From: an uncultured Solirubrobacterales bacterium | GTDB lineage: Bacteria > Actinomycetota > Thermoleophilia > Solirubrobacterales > 70-9 | Assembly: GCA_963787415.1 (NCBI GenBank) | Contig: CAWBCO010000002.1 | Span: forward strand, 84,962 to 148,961 | Direction: 5' to 3' | Length of the DNA stretch: 64,000 bases | Shown: positions 30,003-31,370 of the stretch, piece by piece | Position numbering within the stretch: position 1 is the stretch's first letter | Layout of the letters: every line of letters begins with the position of its first letter | Made by a program: the position numbers and the translations under genes | The notes under the pieces: generated by a model | Databases searched by the model: none | What the model was told of the DNA's origin: nothing | Seen by the model: only the letters and a program-made list of their open reading frames with translations

Positions 30003-31370
30003 ATGAGAGGCCATCGCAGCAGTCGAATCCTTGTCGCGGGCAAGGATGCCCGCACCGACGCCATCGCCGCCGCTTTGGCAGCTAGCCCTCTCACAGCCGA
30101 ACTCTACGCACTGTCAGAACTCCAAAACCCGCCTGGGCTTCTGCGGGCCTGCAAGGAATTACGGCTTGGGTCGCTCACTGATCTGGACTGGTTGGAGTCC
30201 GCGACCCGCGAGATCGCTCCCGACCTTGTCGTCGTCGGCCCTGAGGAGCCGCTCGCCGCTGGCTACGTCGACCGCCTTGATGAGATGGGCATTGCCGCCT
30301 TCGGACCTTCTAGCGAACTCGCCGAAATCGAGTCGAGCAAGACCTGGGCGCGTGAACTCTTGGAGAAATACGACATTGCTGGGAACCCGGACCACCGCGC
30401 CTTCGCAAGTGCTGAGTCGCTGCGAGAGTACATGGAGGAACTCGGTGATTTCGTCGTCAAGCCCGATGGCCTTACTGCAGGCAAGGGAGTCAAGGTCTTC
30501 GGCGAGCACCTGCACTCGATCGACGAGGCTCTCGCCTATGCGCTCGATGTGCTCCAGACCCACCCGCGGGTACTGATCGAGGAGCGACTCGAGGGCGAGG
30601 AGTTCAGCCTGCAGACGATCACCGACGGCGCCGCAGTAATCCACTGCCCGCTCGTGCAGGATCACAAGCGTGCCTTCGAGGGCGATCAGGGGCCGAACAC
30701 CGGCGGCATGGGGTCCTACTCATGCGCGGACTTCTCCTTGCCGTTCCTCAGCGACGCCGATGTGCTCCAGGCGCACACGATCTCCGAAAAGGTGGTCGCG
30801 GCCCTGGCTTCTGAGACCGGCAGGCCCTACAAGGGTGTTCTCTACGGCGGCTTCATCGCAACTTCTGACGGCGTTCGCCTGATCGAGTACAACGCTCGTT
30901 TCGGTGATCCCGAGGCGATGAATGTCCTCCCGATTCTCGACGCCGACTTTGCCGAGATCTGCTTCGCTGTCGCCGCAGGCGAGCTTGGCAAAGTTGACTG
31001 GTCCTTCCAGCCGCGAGCCACCGTTTGTAAGTACGTGGTCCCCGAGGCCTACCCAGAGAAGTCCGAGCCGACCAAGCTCGGAATCACCCCGACTGAGCTC
31101 GATCAGTTTGGTGCCACCTGGTATTGGGCGGCCTGCGAGCAGCACGGCGAGGACATCTTCATGACCTCCTCACGGACCGGTGCCTTCGTCGGCAGCGGGA
31201 ACTCTCTGCAAAAGGCCGAGGCCGCCGCCGAGCAGGCAGCCCAAGAGCTAGGACGCGGCCGCTCGATCCGCTACCGCGCTGACATAGGCACTGAACCGCT
31301 TATTCGTAAGCGGATCGAGCATATGCAGAAACTGCGCGGTTCGCAGTTTCGCCCGCACGCGTCTTTCTAG
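30003..31370 (+). CDS. phosphoribosylamine-glycine ligase (PurD)-like ATP-grasp enzyme, divergent and orphan
   Basis: PurD-type motifs are present: [66 protein letters not shown]. The N-terminal loop reads GKDARTDA instead of the canonical GGREHA. No other pur genes are nearby. Confidence 0.7.
   Translation: [455 protein letters not shown]

Follow-up and report, generated by a model that had tools for sequence, protein, structure and literature searches.

Introduction

The closest described counterparts of the gene studied here are the canonical bacterial PurD enzymes, such as those of Escherichia coli (structure 1GSO), Geobacillus kaustophilus (2YRW) and Bacillus subtilis (2XCL), which are glycinamide ribonucleotide (GAR) synthetases with a four-domain ATP-grasp architecture and an N-terminal loop of the form G(S/K/R)GGREHA. 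Our subject is a variant purD gene, open reading frame (ORF) 30003-31370, on a 64,000-nucleotide stretch of DNA from an uncultured Solirubrobacterales bacterium. This whole stretch, called the window below, corresponds to positions 84962-148961 of contig C2 in genome G000, an assembly of 3.35 Mb in 9 contigs with 63.6% G+C. The variant shares with canonical bacterial PurD the domain architecture (template modeling (TM) scores of 0.83-0.87), the residues for ATP, magnesium and glycine, and the RFGDPE motif, and the same reaction can be inferred for it. However, it is only 27-37% identical to these enzymes, its loop reads GKDARTDA, the loop is followed by an 'NPG'-type motif, as in archaea, in place of the canonical bacterial 'PGN(A/D)G' type, and its gene lies outside any pur operon, on mobile DNA.

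The housekeeping PurD proteins of archaea and of the candidate phyla radiation (CPR) are the closest relatives of the variant outside its own clade, at 42-47% identity among the species-genome matches listed, and the variant nests among them. These enzymes have the canonical loop and are resident single copies, whereas the variant clade is bacterial, patchily distributed, mobile and paired with a small cysteine-rich ORF. Mobile copies of housekeeping enzymes that act by target replacement are familiar from sul, dfr and mupA. Like these, the variant is a diverged form of an essential enzyme that was acquired by horizontal transfer and appears able to substitute for the resident one; unlike the situation with these genes, the resident gene has here actually been lost in relatives and a dedicated small partner gene is present. 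Finally, the haloarchaeal 'extra' PurD-like proteins (rrnAC0307 and Hlac_1553) are likewise products of an additional PurD-like gene whose N-terminal P-loop has diverged. They are without GARS_N, the magnesium ligands and the conserved aspartate of R[LF]GDPE, and have been judged non-functional as GAR synthetases (Brown et al. 2011, PMC3261824). In contrast, the variant has GARS_N, the magnesium ligands and the RFGDPE aspartate, and it is the sole PurD in some genomes.

We propose, with a probability of about 0.77, that the product of ORF 30003-31370 is a functional phosphoribosylamine-glycine ligase (PurD), a mobile enzyme of archaeal type that displaces the native one, and the existing routine annotation of the gene as purD is probably correct. 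In the literature that we searched, we found no description of a loop specific to this clade, of its mobility, of the repeated displacement or of the linked partner gene. Because a complex of PurD with phosphoribosylamine (PRA) has never been observed, a PurD clade with a fixed non-canonical loop at the proposed PRA site provides a natural experiment on which N-loop residues a GAR synthetase requires. Moreover, the native operon purD has been replaced several times in one soil actinobacterial family, which offers a clean, staged example of the xenologous displacement of a core gene. The small unexplained partner gene might serve as a regulator or a partner, or be a selfish component.

A probable PurD enzyme with an altered N-terminal loop

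The gene and its loop are located as follows.

30003-31370, plus strand: variant purD, GAR synthetase of the GKDARTDA clade, 455 amino acids (Pfam, TIGR00877, AlphaFold2 (AF2) fold matches, substitution rates)
30039-30062, plus strand: N-terminal loop GKDARTDA, residues 13-20, in place of G(S/K)GGREHA (28-member alignment, AF2 model)

A preliminary description of the window, made from the sequence alone, had recognized a PurD-type protein across the ATP-grasp and C-terminal domains. This identification holds: the peptides it quoted are present, the frame is uninterrupted over 455 codons, and Pfam detects GARS_N (64.6 bits), GARS_A, the ATP-grasp domain (185.3 bits), and GARS_C (36.3 bits), all exceeding their respective thresholds. 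For the NCBIfam equivalog model TIGR00877, the score of 376 bits exceeds the threshold of 288. An AF2 model built on a 28-sequence alignment has a predicted local distance difference test (pLDDT) score of 88, about 90 over residues 11-20, and a predicted TM score of 0.88. When this model was compared with the Protein Data Bank by Foldseek, the top 15 matches were all GAR synthetases (TM 0.83-0.87, E-values from 1e-40 to 1e-27), with PurT, PurK and biotin carboxylases ranking below them. The ratio of nonsynonymous to synonymous substitution rates (dN/dS) is 0.10 between the variants of G000 and G014 and 0.13 between those of G000 and G267, indicating purifying selection. A decaying pseudogene is ruled out by the value of 0.10 and by the intact frame.

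We mapped the ligand residues by hand through a HMMER alignment to G. kaustophilus PurD (2YRW, chain numbering offset 21). The ATP, Mg2+ and glycine residues of that enzyme (Glu100, Lys103, Lys143, Glu185, Glu192, Asp212, Lys214, Arg287 and Glu292; PMC8880213) correspond, in order, to E110, K113, K153, E193, E200, D220, K222, R299 and E304 of the variant. Likewise, the functional residues of human GAR synthetase include Arg13, Arg292, Asp295 and Arg385 (PMC2978367), whose counterparts are R17, R299, D302 and R391. All of these mapped positions are invariant in 28 aligned family members. Residues 299-306 read RFGDPEAM and fit the signature R-[LF]-G-D-P-E-x-[EQIM] (Prosite PS00184, as quoted in PMC3261824), conserved aspartate included, with R299, D302 and E304 invariant across the GKDARTDA clade in the same alignment. 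The enzymatic activity of the variant is predicted from family membership, ligand residues and the genetics of relatives described below.

The loop is where the protein departs from its family. Relative to GGREHA, Gly-Gly has become Asp-Ala, Glu has become Thr18 and His has become Asp19, while the arginine is kept (R17, human Arg13). G13, D15, R17 and T18 show no variation among the 28 aligned members, and the AF2 model retains the strand-loop-helix at the N-terminus (strand at residues 6-12, helix at 16-26). All other bacterial and archaeal PurD proteins that we extracted have G(G/A)REHA, with the exception of a few slightly different loops in which Arg-Glu is always retained, so the GKDARTDA loop is truly unusual, as the preliminary description had noticed. 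At the same time, it is the invariant norm of a large clade rather than a peculiarity of this gene. Among the residues proposed to be functional, the only difference from human GAR synthetase is Thr18 in place of Glu14. Human Arg13 and Glu14 have been proposed to bind the acyl-phosphate or PRA, with Glu14 orienting the PRA ribose (PMC2978367). A complex of PurD with PRA or GAR has never been observed, and the binding mode of PRA is without an experimental view (PMC8880213, PMC2978367); the importance of the loop glutamate is hypothetical for this reason. The loop change may well be compatible with PRA binding.

Such a change could also indicate a new function. In a neofunctionalized paralogue, the altered loop would redirect the ATP-grasp enzyme, so that it joins glycine or another acid to an amine other than PRA, for instance in a modification of nucleotides or small molecules that the mobile element encodes. 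Such a role fits a loop in which an otherwise conserved Arg-Glu has become an invariant Arg-Thr, a gene that sits away from the pur genes on mobile DNA, and a dedicated, uncharacterized small partner gene. The haloarchaeal proteins with divergent P-loops, judged not to be GAR synthetases (PMC3261824), would be a precedent. Unlike those proteins, the variant clade keeps the glycine, ATP and magnesium residues and the RFGDPE aspartate without exception, and the genomes of relatives bear directly on the question.

Loss of the native gene in carriers of the variant

We looked for the variant in 401 genomes sampled from the order, 401 from the family and 400 others across the phylum, and found carriers in five, six and none of these, respectively. 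The carriers are listed with the identity of their copy to the variant of the window, the state of the native purD, and the presence of the partner ORF beside the variant.

G000 (this genome): 100%; native purD with a +1 frameshift, ambiguous; partner ORF adjacent
G014: 92%; native purD with its ATP-grasp domain deleted in frame; partner ORF present
G267: 72%; native purD intact, 497 bits; partner ORF present
G827: 72%; no native purD found; no partner ORF
G381: 60%; native purD precisely deleted; no partner ORF
G293: 59%; native purD deleted; no partner ORF

In G293 (a single contig of 2.5 Mb), G381 and G827, the variant is the only match to TIGR00877. The deletions can be traced at the native locus. 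The congeners G281 and G284 have only a canonical purD (487 bits), and when the purB-purE-purD locus of G281 is compared with that of G381, the flanks are colinear (95% and 91.5% identity) around an exact gap of 1280 bp that corresponds to purD. The same excision is seen in G293, where about 57 nucleotides remain. The two losses are probably independent, because the purB of G381 has 95% identity to that of G281 but 86% to that of G293, and because the variants of G381 and G293 differ (72.7% identity) and occupy non-homologous loci. In G014, a native remnant 5' of purE-purB has lost TIGR00877 positions ~121-363, the entire ATP-grasp domain, by an in-frame deletion ('...ASHVLGAAGELAEITHAG...'). 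G267 has both genes intact, with the native copy scoring 497 bits and the variant 381 bits.

The other pur genes sought are largely in place. Intact purF and purH were found in five of five genomes tested, and purB in four of four (G293, G381, G267 and the congener G281), with purE adjoining purB in G293 and G381; purM is intact in G000, G381 and G267. A canonical purD is present in all sampled non-carriers whose assemblies are sufficiently complete. That the native gene has been lost solely in carriers would be difficult to account for if the variant did not make GAR, and in G293 and G381, which have purF, purH and purB, no other GAR synthetase is predicted. This is indirect evidence from metagenome-assembled genomes (MAGs), and for G827 it covers purD content alone.

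These observations argue against the paralogue with a new substrate. Three carriers without any other purD, two of them (G293 and G381) with purF, purH and purB, would be left without a GAR synthetase if the variant made another product, and its neighbours are not conserved save for the small ORF, which is missing next to the sole-copy variants. Variants lie 3' of gyrA, 3' of thrA-thrC-thrB, near lysS or in a relaxase/resolvase island, and across the examined loci we found no conserved pathway neighbours apart from this Cys/His-rich ORF. The recruitment to a different amine or carboxylate ligation suggested in the preliminary description is accordingly not borne out, given a loop that is the norm of its clade, ligand residues that are kept, three relatives in which the gene is the sole purD and the lack of pathway neighbours. 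Neofunctionalization retains a small probability, less than that of any other explanation considered here, because the change from Arg-Glu to Arg-Thr is unique and invariant. In G293, the variant is located between gyrA and a convergent HNH endonuclease gene (locus L016, 9446-9955, 169 amino acids), which stands where the Cys-rich ORF would otherwise be and is followed by pheA.

For the genome of the window itself, the situation is less clear. The preliminary description had called the gene an orphan, and indeed no other pur gene was found within the window; contig C6 holds purD-purE-purB, purF and purH, and C7 holds purM. The purD gene on C6 is a canonical one (MRVLVLGSGGREHAIV...) directly 5' of purE and purB, and the variant is 37-41% identical to the native purD of the same genome, in line with the earlier view of a second, divergent purD-type gene. 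As assembled, this canonical purD is split into two frames by one extra G in 'gatGGGatc' (a +1 frameshift). The variant is the only purD in G293, G381 and G827 but has a native counterpart in G000.

This frameshift may be an artefact of long-read sequencing. As a proxy for the rate of such errors, we aligned 188 ORFs of at least 200 amino acids, from 345 kb of the congener G001, to G000. Among the 144 with a close G000 orthologue, 130 are colinear, 9 (~6%) are frame-split and 5 align only in part, and the junctions are often at G runs (for example C6:277743, C6:294082 and C3:26763). Long-read indel errors are therefore present in the G000 assembly, and a single frameshift in it is no reason to call a pseudogene. 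Between G000 and G001, the native purD has 77.6% identity, against an orthologue median of 83% and a lower quartile of 77%; it shows no excess divergence. Because ~6% of genes are frame-split, often at G runs, we do not count the purD frameshift as evidence.

It is thus possible, if the less probable outcome, that in G000 the variant is a redundant passenger: the native purD on C6 would be intact, the frameshift a long-read error, and the island copy a functional yet dispensable second purD, due to be lost with its element. The error rate, the position of the shift in GGG, the ordinary divergence of the native gene and the coexistence of two intact copies in G267 all fit this view. Against it, four of the five other carriers have lost the native gene, a real lesion in G000 would fit that pattern, and the variant is under strong purifying selection.

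Returning to the proposal that the variant is a functional, displacing GAR synthetase, several points weigh against it. The glutamate of GGREHA, kept in every other PurD examined, is threonine in the variant, and the fit of PRA to the changed loop is presumed, since the binding mode of PRA has never been seen experimentally. The case for displacement does not extend to G000 itself, where the native frameshift lies in a GGG run of an assembly with ~6% frame-split genes and the native gene has no unusual divergence. The purM gene of G293 is split over two frames, either by an assembly indel or by a lesion, and purM was not found in the fragmented G014 assembly. The G827 assembly is 91% complete, and the absence of a native purD there could be an assembly gap, so this genome is weaker evidence. 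Finally, the tight linkage between the variant and its partner is unexplained by simple redundancy. The two parts of the G293 purM match profile positions 2-192 and 208-331; the gene is at C1:2450197-2451160 of that genome, at a distance of 14 kb from its variant purD.

Together, the data suggest a process of xenologous gene displacement, with the order of events reconstructed from the genomes compared. In this view, the variant clade descends from a PurD lineage of archaeal/CPR type, and GKDARTDA became fixed in it as a derived form of GGREHA. The gene moves as a two-gene module of ~1.8 kb with a Cys/His-rich, probably zinc-binding protein, carried here as cargo of an island that resembles a conjugative element. 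In a Solirubrobacterales host, the variant could then carry out step 2 of de novo purine synthesis in place of the native enzyme, after which the native purD of the purD-purE-purB operon would decay or be deleted. The partner gene would be lost later, once the native purD was gone.

Origin of the variant clade

A protein search returned at least 120 clusters that are 58-92% identical to the variant, all with the three GARS domains. They are mostly from soil metagenomes and are called PurD wherever they are named. We also scanned a species-genome collection with the family alignment; because the query peptides are universal PurD motifs, the at least 600 matches yield relatives rather than a census of the clade. 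Among the matches listed, the nearest relatives outside the clade are from Methanoperedens, Methanobacteriaceae, Methanocorpusculum, Thermoplasmata, Peregrinibacteria and Gracilibacteria, all with normal G(G/A)REHA loops, and one Phycisphaerae genome also carries the variant (57% identity).

In a maximum-likelihood tree of 69 PurD sequences, with supports from the Shimodaira-Hasegawa-like approximate likelihood ratio test (SH-aLRT), the variant clade is monophyletic (support 100) and nested within an archaeal-type clade. A branch of length 1.12 (support 100) sets this larger clade apart from the bacterial PurD proteins. The sister group of the variant clade is formed by CPR sequences from Gracilibacteria and Peregrinibacteria (support 92), followed by a Syntrophaceae sequence (86), and both of these neighbours carry normal GAREHA loops. 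The native PurD proteins of Solirubrobacterales cluster with those of Acidimicrobiales in the bacterial clade. With the variant in the archaeal-type clade and the native proteins in the bacterial one, the variant is a xenologue and not a local duplicate. Moreover, the variant clade branches inside housekeeping PurD of archaeal/CPR type, which largely removes the ground for the specialized paralogue of the preliminary description.

A third type of gene was observed in the same order. In G352 and G299 (loci L115 and L116), which belong to another family, the only purD has the loop GHGGRESALA and forms a long branch within the archaeal-type clade. These sequences suggest another, independent replacement of the bacterial purD in the order.

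A small gene linked to the variant

The partner gene and the module that it forms with the variant are located as follows.

31367-31699, minus strand: Cys/His-rich partner ORF, 110 amino acids, CxxC..LHHxC..WWAC..CxxCAxR (dN/dS, 22 clusters, linkage)
29899-31667, no strand assigned: two-gene module shared with G014, comprising the upstream region, the purD variant and the partner ORF (nucleotide alignment)

The partner ORF converges on purD and overlaps its stop codon by 4 nucleotides. Its dN/dS of 0.16 relative to G014 indicates that it is a real gene. A profile search of 5.8 billion proteins found 22 clusters of the partner, none of them annotated, whose members have in common the pattern CxxC...R...LHHxC..Q...WWAC..R..D...L.CxxCA.R; the protein probably binds zinc. 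The ORF adjoins a GKDARTDA purD in seven of the seven contexts examined, four of which are mobile-looking contexts found by the PurD search. It is convergent in the window, G014, G267, L178, L180 and L182, and co-directional with a 10-nucleotide gap in L181. In L179, a remnant of 23 codons directly follows the purD stop. No partner ORF was found beside the variants of G293, G381, G827, L015, L176, L177 and L032, so that it is missing in all three genomes in which the variant is the sole purD.

The module itself is delimited by comparison with G014. Positions 29899-31667 align to the first 12,000 nucleotides of contig C132 in G014 (C132:1-12000) with 88.8% nucleotide identity over 1773 nucleotides, which takes in ~100 nucleotides upstream of the variant, the variant purD and the partner ORF, while the immediate flanks differ. 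The only other matches of the window to this region are two weak ones at 1097-3108. No Rfam match was obtained at gathering thresholds in the window, nor at E<=1 in the segment 29500-30200 upstream of the variant, and scans for promoters and terminators upstream of the variant found nothing.

Two roles for the partner protein were rejected. An HNH endonuclease is not indicated, given the lack of a Pfam match at E<=0.01, the non-conservation of the asparagine and last histidine of the expected CxxC..HH..N..CxxCH, and an hhalign probability of 0.95% against the HNH gene of G293, which amounts to no detectable homology. A ligase and carrier pair of the LysX/LysW type is likewise rejected, as the 22 C-termini are variable (for example ..ERRN, ..ENRN and ..DLVP) without a conserved acidic tail and the ligase is of the PurD rather than the RimK/LysX type.

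The repeated loss of the native operon gene and the strict linkage to the partner are not explained by plain redundancy, and they leave room for a selfish or protective replacement module. In this unlikely scenario, the variant GAR synthetase would spread because it is insensitive to an agent that disables canonical PurD. Such an agent could be either the partner protein, as in a toxin-antidote or addiction pair, or an environmental antimetabolite, as in resistance of the sul and dfr kind, and the changed N-loop would be the escape surface. In favor of the scenario, the native purD has been lost in four of six carriers (five if the G000 frameshift is real), although under neutral redundancy the well-regulated operon copy would be expected to win. 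The partner is strictly linked to the variant in both convergent and co-directional arrangements, it has been lost once the native gene is gone, with the remnant in L179 as a trace, and the module is located among toxin-antitoxin pairs on mobile DNA. However, G267 has the partner ORF together with an intact native purD on a short branch, apparently under constraint, and this argues against the strongest form of the scenario. We know of no natural PurD inhibitor, which also counts against it, and the AF2 model of the partner, built from four sequences, is uninformative (pLDDT 45.7). Slightly less likely still is the specific version in which the variant and partner are a selfish metabolic addiction or resistance module, with the small protein or an antimetabolite disabling canonical PurD and the GKDARTDA enzyme immune. 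If it were true, acquisition of the module would make the native purD useless, the native gene would be lost, and the host would come to depend on a mobile element.

One of the contexts has further features of its own. In L178, a Solirubrobacteraceae MAG contig (JBTSNI010000007.1), the module lies between a block of relaxase, NikA-like and MULE transposase genes and a resolvase. Nearby are an OLD-TOPRIM and UvrD pair resembling Gabija and a type I restriction enzyme, which makes the locus a mobile defence island.

Flanking direct repeats

The variant and its partner are bracketed by two copies of a cassette.

29006-29721 (28991-29721 when listed among the cassette copies), no strand assigned: left direct repeat, the N-terminal ~188 codons of the zinc-ribbon gene 28880-29569 (minus strand) and ~150 nucleotides of upstream leader
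31724-32436, no strand assigned: right direct repeat, a second cassette copy with its ORF split over two frames (31936-32457 and 31706-32215) and truncated at the C-terminus

As the preliminary description had seen, purD and the convergent Cys-rich ORF sit between these repeats, which are 91.6% identical over 717 nucleotides at a spacing of ~2717 nucleotides. The left zinc-ribbon ORF (28880-29569) is intact, and the right copy gives two high-scoring segment pairs in tblastn. A third copy with the same boundaries and 87% identity lies outside the window, 78 kb away (C2:194614-195343). The three copies are 87-92% identical, with sharp common boundaries and different sequence downstream of each. 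A fourth, more distant relative is found at 27701-28129 (44% identical).

Two interpretations of the repeats were rejected. They are not an insertion scar or the ends of a composite transposon, as they differ by ~8% and encode a zinc-ribbon protein with its leader but no transposase or recombinase. Nor do they bound an excisable unit, as a third copy with the same boundaries exists elsewhere and the module in G014 is not flanked by the repeats. Because of the 8% divergence, the absence of a recombinase and the lack of repeats around the G014 module, we regard the repeats as paralogous island genes and not as a signature of insertion. Excision or amplification by recombination between them, as suggested in the preliminary description, is possible in principle, but nothing shows that they mobilize the gene. 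A second local direct repeat was also noted, with copies at 24907-25295 and 26058-26446 (391 nucleotides, 90.5% identical, spacing 1151 nucleotides).

Mobile context of the window

The mobile context was defined by Pfam and domain scans of ~40 window ORFs.

1100-17176, minus strand: block of conjugative-element genes that defines the mobile context (Pfam scan), comprising the next six entries
1100-2176, minus strand: SLT transglycosylase
5114-7594, minus strand: VirB4-like AAA_10 ATPase
7591-8250, minus strand: TcpE
8661-9536, minus strand: TcpC
12281-13978, minus strand: type IV coupling protein, TrwB/TraG-type
16790-17176, minus strand: SSB
32853-33502, minus strand: RES/Xre toxin-antitoxin pair (domain scan)
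37938-38420: Phd-type antitoxin (domain scan)

The accessory, mobile location proposed in the preliminary description is upheld by the conjugation genes, SSB and several toxin-antitoxin pairs in the window, and the assignment of the variant as cargo of an island that resembles a conjugative element is well supported. No relaxase or integrase was found among the ~40 window ORFs scanned. In G014, an SLT gene that is 69% identical to that of the window lies 2.5 kb from the module. From ~54 kb on, the window appears to carry ordinary metabolic genes (FMO, P450, SnoaL, TetR and a hydrolase).

Some minor features complete the window. The RES-domain ORF of the pair at 32853-33502 has 96 amino acids and covers profile positions 11-74 of 157, and is thus truncated, while its Xre/MbcA-type antitoxin is full length. 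ARAGORN predicts a tRNA-Trp of 85 nucleotides at 12677-12761 on the plus strand, inside the coupling-protein ORF, which is probably a false positive. Positions 39760-47265 hold large surface-protein genes with fn3 and NHL repeats, of which copies at 70-90% identity are present on C1, C3 and C6 and elsewhere on C2.

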